A stretch of 62,640 nucleotides of DNA, filler included, from Dimargaris cristalligena (GCA_003614675.1; 4 parts of 4 records of this genome joined end to end with filler, not necessarily neighbours in it), one strand, 5' to 3'. Shown: positions 9,171-58,793, numbered from the whole stretch's first letter. A program made the numbers and translations. The notes: generated from the sequence alone by a model not told the origin.

Positions 9171-9479
9171 ATGAAGCTTCTGTCCTCCCTCGCCCTCGTC
9201 CTGGCTGCCATCGGCACCGTGTCCATGGTTCACGCTAACCCCACCACCGCTGAGGACAGCACCGGCCACCAGCCCCATCTGCAGAAGCGTTGGTTCCGCT
9301 CCGGTCTGACTAGGGTTGGTGCCGGTCTGGCCGGTGCTGCCGCGGGCTCAGCCCTCCTTCCTGGCGTCGGTACCGTCATTGGTGGAATTGGTGGTCTGTA
9401 CGGTGGTAACGAGTTGGTCAAGAAGTACCGTCAGTCGCGCGACCAGAAAAAGGCCGCCAAAGCTGCCGGCCAACAGTAG
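9171..9479 (+). CDS. Secreted prepro glycine-zipper cationic peptide (102 aa)
   Basis: Start context ccaccATG. Signal MKLLSSLALVLAAIGTVSMVHA, then 18-aa pro region ending PHLQKR. The predicted 62-aa mature peptide contains GAGLAGAAAGSALLPGVGTVIGGIGGLYGG and a basic tail. Strong C/T-ending codon bias. Paralog at 32377-32826. Confidence 0.85.
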   Translation: MKLLSSLALVLAAIGTVSMVHANPTTAEDSTGHQPHLQKRWFRSGLTRVGAGLAGAAAGSALLPGVGTVIGGIGGLYGGNELVKKYRQSRDQKKAAKAAGQQ

Positions 9480-11211
9480 GAAATTTACTGACCGATGGAT
9501 TTACCCCACTGGGCCAACTGTCACCATCATTATATACCTCAACCCTTTTCCGCGTTTTTTCCTAAGCTAGAAGCAGTGCGCCTGCCCGCACCCTTTGTAA
9601 ATCTTCGTTTTTTATATGTACATGTCCATTTTTATAAATGATGATTTCTTTATGAACACCTGGCCCCAACCCTGGTCATTATCTATGTGTCTTGCTTTAC
9701 AGTACACTATAGTGGGAAGTGCGATTTAATTCGCATGTCTAAAATTCAATAAGATTTGCTTTGAGTTATTTATCTAGCACAGTAATCATTAAGGTCGAAG
9801 AATATTGTGTTCCATAACGAGTTCAAGGGGGGCGATCTTCTACGTAAGCATTTAAGTATAATATGAAGTTTCCGGGCCCTTCCATAGTTAATAGAATATG
9901 TTTACCCGGACATTATCGTATATACCCTAGTCTCTTTTAAACATTATAAAGACATCTAATTATATGTATGGTGGCCTGGATAGTTAATAAGAGGAGGGCC
10001 ATAATGTAGATCAAATGTCCCAACCATTAAACTCCCGATAGCTTACCATTGCGTACTAAATGTAACCGTAGTTCCATTCACTATCAATAAATTTATTTCT
10101 TACCCTTGGGCTCAAGATTATAAACTGCAGATGACTCTCCAATGCGACTCTTTTATGGAACTGGTTACTACCCTTTACACAGAGATGTCGTATAAATATA
10201 ATGGGCCATCCAAGGTATAGTCAATGAAAATAATATAATACGGGAGAAAATGGTTAGCACTGGTAGCTTACAATTCTTGAAAATGTTACATCTACCCCAG
10301 TGGTCAGTTACAATCCTGCAAGTACCAATGAGCCCTCTCATCTTTTGCCGAGAATAATATGGCCGGGAACCAAAATAACTAGTGACCTGGCTGTTCAGAT
10401 ACCCCGGCCATCGACAGTGGATAGCCCCTGTGCGCTATTAATAATGATCGCAGTCACTGATACCTCTACTACCATTTTCCGAGGCATCCGGGGCATATTT
10501 CCTCCTCGGTCCTTCCACACCCTTCTTAAGACCTCCATTCTCGCTTGAGTGTATTATAGGCCTATCAGGCATTATCCGTCGCGAGTGATAGAATTAGACC
10601 CGACTAAAGGGCACACTGCCTACCACATTGACATTTCCCCAGTTTACTGGTGCCCCCATCGCTAATGCCCTTATTTCACTCTCATATATCTCGCTCAAAT
10701 ATCTCCAGTTGATAAAACTCGCTCATATTCATTCGCTGTTATTACAAAAATAATTAGATGTTGGTGCAGTAGTAGTGAGTCAGAGTGGATACCTTAAAAT
10801 CTAGACATGTGGCTATGCAGCAGGGAATTTAGCATCTACGTAAATTTAAAGAAAACATCGGGTATAATATAGGCCTTGTACTTACTAGATATAATAATAT
10901 ATATAGAGTGGGTCACTGTCTACTCACTCCCAGATCCTGTATGTATTTCTTTAAGAATCAGAAATAAAAATGTAAATAGAGGGGCTACCAACAGACCAAC
11001 ACAGCAAAATAAGGCTTGGTCATTAATTACTAGTTGTTGGAAACTAAGGGTCAAAAACTTATGACTTGCCCTACCTTTCTGAGAAGCTATTCCAGTGGCG
11101 TTAAATAGTCTGCAATCAAGCCCTGATATTTGCTTATCAGCTTAGCCAACATAAAGTACGATCAAATTGATACGATGATTGACTATCCTGGATAATAGTG
11201 TATTTATGCAA

Positions 11212-11360
11212 ATATGGGTGAAATTCGGACTGGCTGTCTAAGGTTTTACACGATATGTGTATGGATAAATCGACGGGATATTCCTTTATAATCTATACTA
11301 CTTGCCTCATCCAACGAAAATTTACATTTATTATTCAGCCTGGTTGAACCTCTTCTGCAT
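11212..11360 (+). mobile_element. MITE copy (diverged)
   Basis: Starts atat-gggtgaaattc and contains gatatgtgtatgga and cctcatccaa. Ends cagcctggttgaacctc with a degenerate right terminus. Confidence 0.75.
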
Positions 11361-11423
11361 GTATTTATTATTAGTATTCATACTTTTTTTAAAAGAAAAA
11401 GAAAGACTGGGCGACTGGCCACC

Positions 11424-55769: not shown

Positions 55770-58347
55770 AAAAGTACGTCCAGTTTCGGCCCTTTGGTGA
55801 CTGACAAAACCCCCCTGCACCCACCGCCAATTTAATCGGTGGTAGATCTCTACGCACACCACCCTTTATTTCATTTTATTACCCATTCATACGTCTTATC
55901 CAAATGGGGCCGGCCGGCTCGTGTAATAATACCATCCGTATGGTCCTCCCCCATGCCAATTGTTTATAAAGTATATTTATGCATTACTTGCCCATGTGGA
56001 GTAGGGTCCAAGAAGAAAGAGAGAGAGTGCGTGTGTGTGTGTGAAGTATACGGCTTGTATTTACCCTGTTGCGGGGCAAACAATCCTTGGACCAGTATAG
56101 ACGCCTGCACGCTGCCCTGTCTTTGTCGGATATATGGGGTTTGGAGTGAGCCACCCATAATCTAGCCATCAGTGCCGATTATCTATCTATACCCGACCAC
56201 TTTATTCGGGGAGGTTACGCCCCATGCACTTGGAGTATAGGCTGCATAGTGTGAGCTAAAGTACACTATACTAAATAGTCTTGTCGATGGGGCTTCTTTG
56301 ATGTACATGGGTCTAAAACTCATTGCAACTTTATCGGATGTTGAAGAAAACGTGACTGGAAAAACATATAGCCTGCAGCCAGTGAACCCTTGTATCTCGC
56401 CAACCGGTTATTCGGCTTTACAGCCATATCCAGCCACCCCCGTACGTAAGCGCAATGCACCGACATGATTTCCCCAAGGGTATGGACAAGAGATGGTGGA
56501 TCCTCTTGTTATCTTGGAATGCCATCAGCAAGGACGGTTGCAGTTTGCCCTAACCTGTGGGAAATGGTACGAATTACATTGGTGACCAGGTAAACTAGAT
56601 AGGGTATTATATTTATTCTTAATAGCCGAGTGGCTTAAACCCCTGCCCTGCTGTACACGGCATATGTTGCTATGTTGATCCCCCGACCTTATCCAATCTA
56701 AACGCTTGGCATTCCCGTCTACACTTTTCTTCCCGGGCCCCCCACTGTACACACCCGGTAATAGAATTCGGACCGACCCCTTATCTCCTTCGTTGTATAT
56801 ATATATATATATAATGGCTGAGCCAGACGTGCAAATGGGTATTATCAAGCGAGCAATTGAAACGAGCTAGAGGGAGAATGTAACAGTTAACGACGATGTA
56901 CTGGACAGACTAGAATATAATACGACCAGTGCTGACAATGCGGCTCTCACCATTTCCTAGGACTTTAACCTGTGGGTCGTATTCGGTATTCGTGAGGACC
57001 TCTACAAATTAGGCGACACAATACTGGTTCGGGGGATTCAACTCATGGACTCAAATAAACTGGTCTTTTCACAGTCCAGATACATTACTGTATAGGTCAG
57101 TTGTGGTATCAGTGGCTGGTTTGCCGGAGGGTGGAGGGGTTACGGGGGCTTGAGTTGAAAGTTGGGGGGGGATATAAATTTAGAATAATGGGAGTGGACT
57201 TCGAGAGTCAGGGGGAAATGGGCGAAATTATAAAAGAGTCGTAGATGTTGTAGAGTATTCATACGGACCACACCCTGTACATTTTTATACCTGTCATTCG
57301 AGAGGAGCCGGCCGTCATTGCCGGTATGGATTTCCCTTTATCTTTTGTTTCTTTCAAACTATGCGTAATATAGGCTGTCATATGGTCTTATTCAACAACA
57401 GCTATGTTGCTTTTCCGGGGGGGGTTAGCAACTGTGCTTACAATGGCCGAAACAATTAATCCATAGAGTCCTTGAGTCGCTGGGGCCCCACCACCAAGTG
57501 CATCCCTCACTTGGCCAGGTCATAACCGTCCTCTAATACAAGAGATTAGGGGCCTACAAGCCCGCTAGACTAGACCGTACCATGTATGGGCGCCTCGAGA
57601 AGAAATGGTGGCTGAGGGGAGATTGTCGACGGGAATGATGGGGATGAAGGGATAAACTAATAATGAAGGCACCAATAGGTGGTGGCGGTGGGGGGGAGGG
57701 GGTTGATAGGACCCTAGTCAAGGCACGATTCGTTCAAGGGATTCCGTGAAGCAACGGCGCCGGCATGTAAACCTCGAAAGTCGATGGCCATTTTTCCATT
57801 TCCTTTCCTCCCTTTTAGTTTTGCCATCCTATTTCCCAATATATTTTCGGCCACTCAAGAGATGATCCCGAATTCAACGATCTATTGTTGGCAAGGGACA
57901 TGTCTGTTGGCCTGGGCTCGGGTAAACAACGAGTGCATGCCTCGCTTTCCTTGTATGTACCGTTAAAAAACGGGGAGACTAATAGTTTTTAGGGTTGGGG
58001 GATTATATATTAATGGGAATGCAGTGTATATTGGAGTTGCAATTCCCTATCGAATAGGTAGTAATTAAAAACGACCTAGCCACGCGGCTTCCTTCCATTA
58101 GTGCAAGTATAAATATACAACAATATCTAAATGAACCGTTTAATAATTGAAAATTATTAACCGATCAAAAGGGAGGCTCTTCGGGTCCCAATGATTCCGA
58201 GATGAATCGTGGTTTCCATATATGGCAATGCAGCCTAAAAATATGTTCGGCCAAGCCTATACTATCTCGGCCGACCTATTATCTATATCAATAGTCAAAT
58301 GTACATTCCCCCCCTTGTCTGCTGTTTACAGCCGGCCTCTTTCCATG

Positions 58348-58355
58348 TATAAATA
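58348..58355 (+). promoter_or_regulatory. TATA box of secreted peptide gene 58500-58793
   Basis: TATAAATA(CCCT) followed by a CT-rich leader ~150 nt before the ATG. Confidence 0.55.
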
Positions 58356-58499
58356 CCCTTCATCTCGCTCCCACTCTGCAGTATTCATTATTCAACTCCA
58401 CCATTCCCCTCTCTACGGACTCTTCCCTTCCACTATCTTCATCCCCCACCTACCACTTCCCCTTCCCCTCCCCCATCTATTAATTGCACCTTGGCCGTC

Positions 58500-58793
58500 A
58501 TGTTGAAGTCTACTATCGTCCTGTGCCTCTCTGCCCTGGCTCTGACCTCTGTGCCCTTCGTGGCTGCCCACCAGCCGCAGCAACCTCATCTGGTGCGCCG
58601 TGAACCGTCAACTACCCAGGCTGTTCTCACGTCTGCCGGTATCAGTGCGGCTGCGGGTGCCGCTTTCAACAAGGGGAACCGCCTCAGCGCTGCTGCCAAG
58701 TCGGCCGTCCTCGGTGGTGGTGCCACATACCTCTTTAGTAAGGGGCAACAATGGTACAACAAACGCAAGCAGAACAAGGCTAATAAGGAGTAA
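58500..58793 (+). CDS. Secreted prepro Ala/Gly-rich cationic peptide (97 aa)
   Basis: Signal MLKSTIVLCLSALALTSVPFVAA, pro region HQPQQPHLVRR, then a 63-aa mature region with SAGISAAAGAAF, AVLGGGATYLF and a K/R-rich tail. Confidence 0.8.
   Translation: MLKSTIVLCLSALALTSVPFVAAHQPQQPHLVRREPSTTQAVLTSAGISAAAGAAFNKGNRLSAAAKSAVLGGGATYLFSKGQQWYNKRKQNKANKE

Follow-up and report, generated by a model that had tools for sequence, protein, structure and literature searches.

Four short open reading frames (ORFs) dispersed over a 62,640-nucleotide stretch of Dimargaris cristalligena DNA (the window, in which N spacers join four contigs) each combine a signal-peptide-like N-terminus with the motif P-x-L-x-[KR]-R, and raise the question of whether they specify secreted peptides matured by a common protease and whether those peptides serve as toxins or effectors, as an earlier note proposed. 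Our preferred reading, which we hold with middling confidence, is that all four (P0001–P0004, Table 1) are genes for small peptides matured by Kex2, and that the products of P0001, P0002, and probably P0004 would be cationic, membrane-active peptides that insert into target membranes.

Table 1. Contigs, genes, gene parts, and upstream elements, in window coordinates
Feature	Position	Strand	Basis
Contig 1 of 4	1-15611		
Contig 2 of 4	15712-31306		
Contig 3 of 4	31407-46991		
Contig 4 of 4	47092-62640		
P0001 promoter and C/T-rich 5′ leader, homologous to those of P0002	8919-9170	+	blastn, alignment
TATAAATA box upstream of P0001	8989-8996	+	sequence read, upstream alignment
P0001 gene, 102 aa	9171-9479	+	translated ORF
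P0001 signal peptide, residues 1-22, ending VHA	9171-9236	+	crude hydrophobic-core score 2.6; cleavage by (-3,-1) rule
P0001 18-residue pro-unit ending PHLQKR	9237-9290	+	translation, unit alignment
P0001 predicted mature peptide, 62 aa, net charge +7, glycine-zipper helix-break-helix, basic tail	9291-9476	+	
P0002 gene, 149 aa: signal peptide, four 18-residue pro-units, glycine-zipper peptide	32377-32826	-	translated ORF
P0002 predicted mature glycine-zipper peptide, 55 aa, net charge +2	32380-32544	-	
P0002 four tandem 18-residue pro-units, ending PLLRRR, PPLKRR, PHLRMR, PLLKKR	32545-32760	-	gapless alignment
P0002 5′ leader and promoter, TATAAG near 33031-33036	32827-33106	-	alignment, blastn
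TATAAAAG box upstream of P0003	45666-45673	+	sequence read, upstream alignment
P0003 gene, 63 aa: signal peptide 1-21, propeptide 22-34 ending PDLSKR, 29-aa anionic Trp-rich peptide with two Cys	45824-46015	+	translated ORF
TATAAATA box upstream of P0004	58348-58355	+	sequence read, upstream alignment
P0004 gene, 97 aa: signal peptide 1-23, propeptide 24-34 ending PHLVRR, 63-aa cationic (+7) Gly/Ala-rich peptide	58500-58793	+	translated ORF

Translation recovers the four ORFs with their signal-peptide-like N-termini and each motif quoted in the earlier note, and the post-site residues WFRSG, SVGST, EPSTT, and QMEGG are present in the translations. The genes sit on three of the contigs. Applying the (−3,−1) rule by eye gives signal peptides of 21–23 aa, as claimed; each N-terminus has a hydrophobic core and an A-x-A-type end, with crude scores of 2.59–3.03. 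These are the four top scores among the 230 ATG-initiated ORFs of ≥40 aa in the window, and all four belong to ORFs with P.L.[KR]R, a pattern present in 7 of the 230. Specifically, the pattern occurs in 4 of 14 signal-peptide-like ORFs versus 3 of 216 others (Fisher p = 2.8e-4), and 200 first-order Markov surrogates had on average 0.005 ORFs with both features and never more than 1, against the 4 observed, so that the shared motif is indeed beyond coincidence. The genes were also said to be intronless; the ORFs are uninterrupted, but the 3′ end of P0004 is spliced in one public gene model (P0053).

The four ORFs look like real genes of D. cristalligena for small prepro-peptides, and it is highly improbable that some or all of them are chance frames or decaying pseudogenes with a coincidental motif. 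Besides the surrogate result, among the three sense frames the codon log-likelihood exceeds 0 in the claimed frame only; dN/dS between P0001 and P0002 is 0.43 over 64 codons; P0002 is kept, with one substitution, in a GenBank allele (P0052; the allele with one substitution is KAJ1976973.1); a record from a different contig has a sequence identical to the 97-aa P0004; and TATA boxes and leaders are present. GC3 of the four ORFs is 0.64–0.78, against 0.61–0.76 in conserved genes. The decay reading can draw on P0003, which has no known homolog, and on paralogs with a degenerate site or a lost start: P0006 has KH, and P0007 has no Met at the family start, its annotated N-terminal extension aligning to DNA that lies 5′ of the ATG of P0001.

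Alignment of the four upstream regions bears out a TATA-like box and a CT-rich leader for each gene: TATAA is an invariant block, roughly 145–205 bases 5′ of each ATG (counted by hand in the four genes), and C/T-rich leaders follow it. The regions upstream of P0001 and P0002 match at 70% over 362 columns (8919–9250 versus 33106–32747, blastn E 8e-40).

P0002 is a paralog of P0001 (BLASTP E 3e-12), with 75% DNA identity over 113 bases between the mature parts. The genes, on three contigs as the earlier note had it, thus represent three independent lineages, not four. By sequence comparison, P0001 and P0002 are members of a family restricted to this species, with at least eight distinct sequences. 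In the family plan, a conserved signal peptide is followed by between one and five pro-units of 18 residues that end P-x-L-x-[KR]-R; a glycine-zipper helix-break-helix comes next, and the tail is basic. A family profile run against 1.84 billion representatives gave 47 matches at E ≤ 1e-3, and those sharing both signal peptide and pro-unit all come from D. cristalligena (P0006, P0002, P0007, P0009, P0010, P0029, and P0040); a further member, P0005, came from a separate search. That the family is known from one species only weighs against the preferred reading, for want of comparative support. The number of pro-units differs between the alleles P0009 and P0010. P0004 is a probable distant relative, judging from weak sequence kinship: tblastn of P0007 against the P0004 locus gives E 9e-4, and the mature-part HMM score of P0004 is reached by 24 of 500 shuffles. 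What stands of the proposed large genome-wide repertoire is a multi-gene one, with at least eight distinct P0001-type sequences in same-species GenBank records, plus P0004 and P0003. The near-identical GenBank records P0052 and P0053 are labelled D. cristalligena, two locus-tag prefixes occur among the relatives, and P0001, P0002, and P0004 are in a protein collection from NCBI-derived sources. Extra contigs of 80–95% likeness stack on the P0003 and P0002 regions.

The pro-units point to a kexin-type protease. In particular, the four P0002 units and the P0001 unit align without gaps, with P13, L15, and R18 invariant, and no DNA-level tandem repeat of 18-residue period was detected in the P0002 pro-unit region. 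Pro-unit sites were counted in 10 proteins, leaving out the allele P0010 and discarding one overlapping match. Of the 17 sites, 14 have Pro at P6, 16 have Lys or Arg at P2, and 15 have Arg at P1, Leu at P4 being imposed by the search pattern. Degenerate sites, which count against the preferred reading, include PHLQKH in P0006, PLLKKC in one P0009 unit, and PHLRMR in P0002 unit 3; the last, as a correction to the earlier note, has no dibasic pair. In the available text of 10.1101/2020.05.27.120113, Kex2 is described as preferring Leu at P4 and Lys/Arg-Arg at P2–P1, and as removing N-terminal pro-domains of fungal effectors in vitro. Set beside that description, the signature P-x-L-x-[KR]-R is mostly the known extended Kex2 site L-x-[KR]-R, with only Pro at P6 in addition; it indicates a common processing route and not a common toxin family. 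Low-confidence AF2 models are consistent with disordered propeptides: pLDDT is <50 over about residues 23–48 of P0001 (23–36 and 38–48), with no secondary structure at ~23–40, and is likewise <50, with no secondary structure, over residues 15–38 of P0004.

In Kex2-processed pro-domain (K2PP) effectors such as SnTox3, ToxA, and the SIX proteins, as far as the excerpted source describes them (10.1101/2020.05.27.120113), a signal peptide likewise precedes a short N-terminal pro-domain, with an LxxR/KR/RR junction that has Leu at P4 and a larger C-terminal part as the active product; their pro-domain is predominantly disordered, as those here may be. Residues before and after the site number 18 and 62 in P0001, 13 and 29 in P0003, and 11 and 63 in P0004, in agreement with the K2PP criterion on the two parts; the first site of P0002 agrees with it too, whereas the last, with 72 residues before it and 55 after, does not. 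K2PP effectors come from plant pathogens and are folded proteins, mostly rich in Cys, whereas the peptides here have 29–63 residues, three of them contain no Cys, and the host would be another fungus; there is no sequence relation between K2PP effectors and P0001–P0004.

As outlined in excerpts of PMC6339444 and PMC7329392, Kex2-processed repeat proteins (KEPs) share with P0002 and P0009/P0010 a signal peptide, tandem repeats, a basic site ending each repeat, and a repeat number that varies between alleles. Their signal-peptide feature is found in all four ORFs, but internal repeats occur only in P0002, as P0001, P0003, and P0004 have a single unit. The P0002 units 1, 2, and 4 end in the Kex2 sites RR, RR, and KR, while RMR of unit 3 fits LxxR only. 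The repeats of KEPs are the products, whereas those here look like multiplied propeptides before a distinct C-terminal glycine-zipper peptide. Candidalysin, a membrane-damaging peptide that Kex2 cuts at Lys-Arg sites from the secreted Ece1 precursor of Candida albicans (PMC5784256), has 31 residues, lies inside a precursor of several peptides, and is not a glycine zipper; for the peptides here, membrane activity is a prediction.

The case for membrane activity draws on the predicted mature peptides. P0001 and P0002 share the core G-x-[AT]-G-A-A-x-G-[ST]-A-x-L-P-G-V-G-T-V-x-G-G, and net charges of +7 to +10 with pI >10 are found for P0001, P0004, P0005, P0007, and P0029. AF2 places helices at residues 41–62 and 66–100 of P0001, with a break at LPG (mean pLDDT 60), and, from a single sequence, at residues 39–55 and 64–96 of P0004 (mean pLDDT 61). 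The core resembles glycine zippers of many proteins in Pfam (PF13488, PF13441, and PF10439; glycine-zipper and Bacteriocin_IIc families). P0001 and P0002 themselves do not reach the gathering cut-offs of Gly-zipper_Omp, Gly-zipper_YMGG, or Bacteriocin_IIc (Bacteriocin_IIc 15.8 and 16.3 vs 27.1; Gly-zipper_Omp 8.4 and 15.5 vs 25), a DUF456 match of P0001 is also below cut-off, and P0003 and P0004 have no Pfam match to these families; the core is near proteins that were retrieved by the family profile and pass Pfam Gly-zipper cut-offs (P0012, 25.4 vs 25; P0034, 35.0 vs 28.9). Class II bacteriocins are likewise small and cationic, with a removable leader, but theirs is a double-glycine leader cut by a dedicated ABC transporter/peptidase, whereas that of P0001–P0004 is a eukaryotic signal peptide with a kexin site; no immunity or transporter gene context was seen in the window. 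In TelE (T7SS), CdzC/D (T1SS surface aggregates), and Tde1 (T6SS), a glycine zipper is needed for membrane insertion or toxicity according to the accessible portions of PMC10434224, PMC5380434, and PMC10240207, a likeness of function only, since the delivery systems differ.

On the preferred reading, a cleavable signal peptide would direct each product into the secretory pathway, and a short, probably disordered propeptide (a single 18-residue unit in P0001, four such units in P0002, 13 residues in P0003, and 11 in P0004) would end in the extended kexin site, after which Golgi kexin would cut, setting the C-terminal peptide free. In the case of P0001, P0002, and probably P0004, this would be a Gly/Ala-rich helix-break-helix peptide of 55–63 residues, predicted in P0001 and P0002 to comprise a glycine zipper with an LPG turn and then a basic, partly amphipathic tail. 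Like cationic glycine-zipper bacteriocins and toxins, such peptides might insert into the membranes of their targets, and P0002-type members may also release their 18-residue units, as Kex2-processed repeat proteins do. Reviews, in the portions available, describe the order of D. cristalligena as haustorial mycoparasites, and the targets could be host Mucorales or competing microbes. We infer the toxin/effector role itself from these likenesses.

The same features admit readings with no antagonism. The glycine zipper and basic tail recur as a C-terminal module in signal-peptide-less proteins from metagenomes and a protist transcriptome (P0027, P0039, P0019, P0041, P0035, P0031, and P0046), where they presumably form a membrane anchor, and the zipper also lies inside bacterial dynamin-like and Sel1 proteins. 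P0001-type products might be small integral proteins of the fungus's own membranes, with the signal peptide removed, the zipper serving as a stop-transfer or hairpin anchor, the tail cytosolic, the basic site idle or trimming a short ectodomain, and no toxin released. The maximum 19-residue Kyte-Doolittle means of P0002 (1.66), P0005 (1.75), and P0007 (1.65) are at the classical transmembrane threshold, the tail follows the positive-inside pattern, and one source names P0005 'Transmembrane protein'. We nevertheless judge this anchor reading unlikely. P0029, which retains a signal peptide, LTKR, and a basic tail, has no hydrophobic stretch (0.67), and P0004 reaches only 1.05 yet keeps signal peptide, pro-unit, and basic tail, which argues against a pure membrane-anchor role; an anchor would hardly account for a kexin-type pro-unit that is conserved and has been duplicated repeatedly; and P0003 would not be covered.

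It is also doubtful that all four are ordinary secreted Kex2 products with a non-antagonistic role (signalling or pheromone-like, surface- or wall-associated, or KEP-like and repeat-derived), the motif being simply the local kexin preference. The excerpted literature does describe KEPs and Kex2-processed pro-domain proteins as common in fungi and mostly of unknown function (PMC6339444, PMC7329392, 10.1101/2020.05.27.120113), with the highest mean KEP count, 11.56 per strain over 16 strains, in Zoopagomycota (PMC7329392); P0002 fits the KEP definition; and P0003 has no toxin-like feature. Against this, P0001, P0002, and P0004 have a cationic glycine-zipper payload that is like membrane-inserting modules and unlike known signalling peptides, and in the bacterial toxins cited above such motifs are required for toxicity.

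P0003 stands apart from the other three genes. Its mature part is unrelated to the P0001 family and, being anionic, does not fit the membrane-active picture; by the same route it would yield an anionic, Trp-rich, probably disulphide-looped peptide. Its exact sequence is absent from a collection of 15 billion proteins, which fits the claim that gene callers miss genes this short, but the other three are annotated.

Precursors of dikaritin-type fungal RiPPs have repeated core peptides between Kex2 sites and an adjoining DUF3328/UstYa gene. P0003 does not fit this type, as it has a single core only and the four contig ORFs of ≥110 aa tested, out of 14 listed, gave no Pfam match. Several more contigs with a likeness of ≥80% cover P0003 in two runs.

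All four short reading frames that the earlier note had singled out, and every motif it had quoted from them, were found where it had placed them (P0001, P0002, P0003, and P0004; see the feature table, in which signal-peptide ends were assigned by the (-3,-1) rule, read from the sequence and not from a predictor). Its description of a TATA-like box and CT-rich leader is also borne out: TATAA is invariant in a four-way upstream alignment, lies ~145-205 bases upstream of each ATG (counted by eye), and is followed by C/T-rich leaders. Across the whole window, P.L.[KR]R is present in 7 of 230 ATG-initiated ORFs of at least 40 aa, and the four ORFs with the highest crude signal-peptide scores all carry it. 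Specifically, the motif occurs in 4 of 14 signal-peptide-like ORFs compared with 3 of the remaining 216 (Fisher p = 2.8e-4), and Markov surrogates of the window (n = 200) averaged 0.005 ORFs with both features, never exceeding 1, compared with the 4 observed. The combination of signal peptide and P.L.[KR]R is not due to chance. The claimed frames share the codon bias of conserved genes (GC3 0.64-0.78 versus 0.61-0.76), and the reading of them as chance ORFs is very unlikely. P0001, P0002, and P0004 are present in the protein collection through NCBI-derived sources, and GenBank labels their nearest relatives and near-identical cluster members as D. cristalligena (prefixes BJ085DRAFT and H4R33). 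Public gene models differ at the 3' end of P0004, comprising the plain 97-aa ORF and a spliced 115-aa model (P0053) in which the final residue is replaced by 19 other residues. Rfam and tRNA scans gave no match near the four genes.

Features of the four joined contig pieces (N spacers lie between the pieces)
Feature	Coordinates	Strand	Signal peptide	Pro region	Site(s) or remark
Contig piece 1	1-15611
Promoter and 5' leader, P0001	8919-9170
P0001 (102 aa)	9171-9479	+	1-22	18 residues	PHLQKR
Contig piece 2	15712-31306
tRNA-Phe (GAA) gene	31238-31310	-			extreme end of second contig; reported end 4 bases into N spacer
Contig piece 3	31407-46991
144-base element	31493-31636				terminal inverted repeats (ATATGGG...CAGCTGTATAA / TTATACAGCT...CCCATAT)
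P0002 (149 aa)	32377-32826	-	1-22	four 18-residue units	PLLRRR, PPLKRR, PHLRMR, PLLKKR
Promoter and 5' leader, P0002	32827-33106
P0003 (63 aa)	45824-46015	+	1-21	13 residues	PDLSKR
Contig piece 4	47092-62640
P0004 (97 aa)	58500-58793	+	1-23	11 residues	PHLVRR

BLASTP identifies P0001 and P0002 as paralogs (E 3e-12), and their loci are homologous across ~1.1 kb, from the promoter through the 3' flank. DNA identity is 70% in the 5' leader (362 columns), 75% in the glycine-zipper part, and 69% in the 3' flank, and dN/dS is 0.43 over 64 alignable codons. Among the paralogs, promoter and 5' leader show roughly as much conservation as the coding sequence and share the block CTGTAGCTT[TA]ACAG. Two relatives, P0007 and P0009, have annotated N-terminal extensions that can be aligned with the DNA immediately upstream of the start codons of P0001 and P0002, and P0007 lacks a Met at the start position of the family. 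The four dispersed genes of the earlier note are thus present but are not four independent cases, since the paralogy of P0001 and P0002 leaves three independent lineages.

A profile built from P0001, P0005, P0006, and P0002 gave 47 matches at E <= 1e-3 among 1.84 billion representatives. The matches having both the signal peptide (MK.L....L.LA.I.T..M.HA) and a pro-unit are exclusively from D. cristalligena: P0006, P0007, P0002, the alleles P0009/P0010, P0029, and P0040. With P0001 and P0005 included, the family comprises no fewer than 8 distinct sequences; the library was clustered at 50% identity, so the true number may be higher. The pro-unit is 18 residues long, and in a gap-free alignment of the five units of P0001 and P0002, P13, L15, and R18 are invariant. 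Unit number differs between P0009 and P0010, and P0029 retains the signal peptide, LTKR, and basic tail but not the glycine zipper. Tandem Repeats Finder detected no 54-base period in P0002, indicating that its four pro-units are old at the DNA level. A word-based homolog search with P0002 and P0004 returned self matches only, and of the pattern matches obtained by scanning metagenomes with the family alignment (499) and P0003 (595), none was confirmed.

P0004 is probably a distant relative of this family; clear membership is not proven, since BLASTP was not significant (E 1.6 and 12) and its score of 2.8 bits on the HMM of the mature part was reached by 24 of 500 shuffles. On the full-length HMM it scored 18.8, reached by 0 of 500 shuffles, with most of the score coming from the signal peptide. 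With composition correction off, the P0004 locus was the next-best tblastn match in the window for P0007 (E 9e-4), P0005 (0.016), P0040 (0.018), and P0029 (0.042). AF2 models, of low overall confidence, have an apparently disordered pro region followed by two helices with a break between them, both in P0001 (residues 41-62 and 66-100; mean pLDDT 60) and in P0004 (39-55 and 64-96; mean pLDDT 61). In the ESM Atlas, the clusters nearest to P0004 are YMGG-type glycine-zipper families (0.77, a lead only). P0003 is ruled out as a member, its score being matched by 304 of 500 shuffles, and is at the sequence level unrelated to the P0001 family. Its predicted mature peptide has 29 aa, a net charge of -3, four Trp, two Cys, an N-terminal Gln, and two N-x-[ST] sequons. 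The ESM Atlas gave no usable match to P0003, and its exact sequence is absent from a collection of 15 billion proteins. Several more DNA contigs of two sequencing runs (>=80% likeness) cover its coding region, one variant being present in 3 contigs of each run, which points to unannotated paralogs of P0003.

The processing signature is in large part generic. Kex2 prefers Arg at P1, Lys or Arg at P2, and at P4 an aliphatic residue, with Leu favoured, and the same source reports disordered N-terminal pro-domains ending in LxxR, KR, or RR in 33 of 120 fungal effectors and in vitro removal of pro-domains by Kex2 for SnTox3, ToxA, and three SIX proteins (10.1101/2020.05.27.120113). The L-x-[KR]-R of the signature that the earlier note took to unite the four genes is therefore an extended Kex2 site already described; only the frequent Pro at P6 is additional. 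Among 17 pro-unit sites in 10 proteins, collected with a pattern that demanded Leu at P4, with one overlapping match dropped and allele P0010 left out, Pro is present at P6 in 14, Lys or Arg at P2 in 16, and Arg at P1 in 15. Exceptions are PHLQKH (P0006), PLLKKC (one P0009 unit), and PHLRMR (P0002 unit 3). Pro at P6 may reflect a subsite preference of the local kexin or common descent of the pre-pro cassette.

Predicted mature peptides
Precursor	Length (aa)	Charge	Maximum 19-residue Kyte-Doolittle mean
P0001	62	+7	1.48
P0002	55	+2	1.66
P0004	63	+7	1.05
P0005	62	+8	1.75
P0007	62	+10	1.65
P0029	34	+8	0.67

The six predicted peptides range from clearly soluble to borderline transmembrane, contain 29-39% Gly plus Ala, and, with the exception of P0002, have a pI above 10. 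The core shared by P0001 and P0002, G-L-[AT]-G-A-A-x-G-[ST]-A-L-L-P-G-V-G-T-V-[IV]-G-G, has only sub-threshold matches in Pfam (Bacteriocin_IIc, Gly-zipper_Omp, and DUF456). Segments of many unnamed proteins are nearly identical to it, and some of these proteins exceed Pfam glycine-zipper cut-offs (P0012, 25.4 versus 25; P0034, 35.0 versus 28.9). A PDB profile search gave 6 matches, all at E >= 0.38 and none meaningful. Horizontal transfer from bacteria was set aside as an origin of the glycine zipper, given the small size and very wide occurrence of the motif. One uncharacterised group without signal peptides (P0027, P0039, P0019, P0041, P0035, P0031, and P0046; metagenomes and one protist transcriptome) has a C-terminus comprising HP[QE]K..MKRHRRDKTA, a glycine zipper, and KRYEKK.QRKWER, resembling the P0001 mature peptide from the cleavage site onward.

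Starting from the observed genes, motif, family, and payload features, we infer a route in which every step after translation is conditional. Precursors would enter the ER and lose the signal peptide; a Golgi kexin would cleave after the pro-unit or pro-units; and cationic glycine-zipper helix-hairpin peptides would be freed and would insert into target membranes, P0002-type precursors also releasing 18-residue peptides as Kex2-processed repeat proteins (KEPs) do. We judge the chances for and against such kexin-matured, membrane-inserting peptides to be evenly balanced. In the leading alternative, the glycine zipper would hold the proteins in membranes of the fungus itself. This would fit the occurrence of zipper and basic tail at the C-terminus of proteins lacking a signal peptide and also inside bacterial dynamin-like and Sel1 proteins, and the three family members that reach the transmembrane threshold; an anchor is harder to reconcile with P0029 and P0004, which have no hydrophobic stretch, and with the conservation and multiplication of a kexin-type unit. 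Another alternative is that the products are signalling or surface peptides with a non-antagonistic role.

The toxin/effector arsenal proposed in the earlier note is partly supported, with real-looking genes, a shared motif, and a species-restricted family behind it; the generic L-x-[KR]-R points to a common processing route and not to a common toxin family. The boldest form of the reading we regard as doubtful: in it, the fungus would possess a rapidly diversifying set of cationic glycine-zipper peptides, matured by kexin and confined to its lineage, which would parallel in a eukaryote the class II bacteriocins and glycine-zipper toxins. They would be delivered at the haustorial interface and permeabilise membranes of Mucorales hosts or of competitors on dung, the multiplied 18-residue pro-units supplying a second peptide set. 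If true, it would be the first peptide-toxin family described from a zoopagomycote mycoparasite.

The precursor plan of P0001, P0003, and P0004 resembles that of proteins with a Kex2-processed pro-domain (K2PP), and that of P0002 and P0009/P0010 resembles that of KEPs. The payload of three of the peptides resembles class II bacteriocins and glycine-zipper toxins, but these peptides fail Pfam thresholds and the Dimargaris precursors lack the double-glycine leader of class II bacteriocins. The likeness to candidalysin is limited to excision from a secreted precursor at basic sites. A literature search found no paper joining 'glycine zipper' and 'Kex2' in fungi among its 15 top-ranked results, and no description of this Dimargaris family; KEP survey tables may list P0002 or P0009, and the surveys cover 16 Zoopagomycota strains (PMC7329392). 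The predicted species-restricted variant is new; Kex2-type processed secreted peptides are, as a system, already known. In addition, P0008 and P0055 (593 and 694 aa), secreted precursors with tandem amphipathic units (GASIFSTIAKAIPSVISGISSLFGG...) ending in KR or RR, are by their architecture a striking KEP with candidalysin-like repeat peptides. P0008 was matched in 10 stretches in the family profile search; the two are unrelated to the Dimargaris family, save by composition.

Candidalysin and killer toxins are membrane-active peptides released by Kex2. To our knowledge, the molecular means by which Zoopagomycota haustorial mycoparasites affect the fungi they parasitise are almost undescribed, and small secreted precursors of a species-restricted family, clearly marked by their processing signature, offer concrete candidates. 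Peptide synthesis can deliver products of the predicted length, which opens them to assays on host protoplasts, liposomes, and bacteria. If active, they would bring early-diverging fungi and fungus-fungus parasitism into the theme of membrane-active peptides released by Kex2, and would be a case of a eukaryotic secreted peptide with a glycine zipper as its payload. Even if the peptides are inactive, the loci record how a single pre-pro cassette, made up of signal peptide and 18-residue unit, is duplicated and multiplied.

The long ORFs of the window match ordinary eukaryotic proteins (M3 peptidase, DEAH helicase, Kelch protein, septin, and MFS transporter), and Dimargaritales are described as mycoparasites (PMC9866270, PMC10386755). 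The third contig carries the same 55 bases at both ends (31407-31461 = 46937-46991), and a contig of an independent run, X5, joins 46377-46936 directly to 31407-31522 with zero mismatch, indicating a 15,530-base unit that is circular or tandemly repeated. The unit bears both P0002 and P0003 and is partly AT-rich (GC 0.34-0.45); four tested ORFs of at least 110 aa on this contig had no Pfam match. At position 40685, inside its sole long ORF (40616-42010), one base of the window is absent from contigs of X1 and X5, which a one-base error or a polymorphism might explain. The bin holding the 144-base element (31407-31926) has a summed contig depth of ~66,800 in X1 and ~24,100 in X5, compared with 45 and 179, respectively, for long contigs elsewhere on the window. 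The element is joined to dozens of distinct flanks, is also present at 80-90% likeness in X6, the run of a second organism, and looks like a very high-copy MITE.
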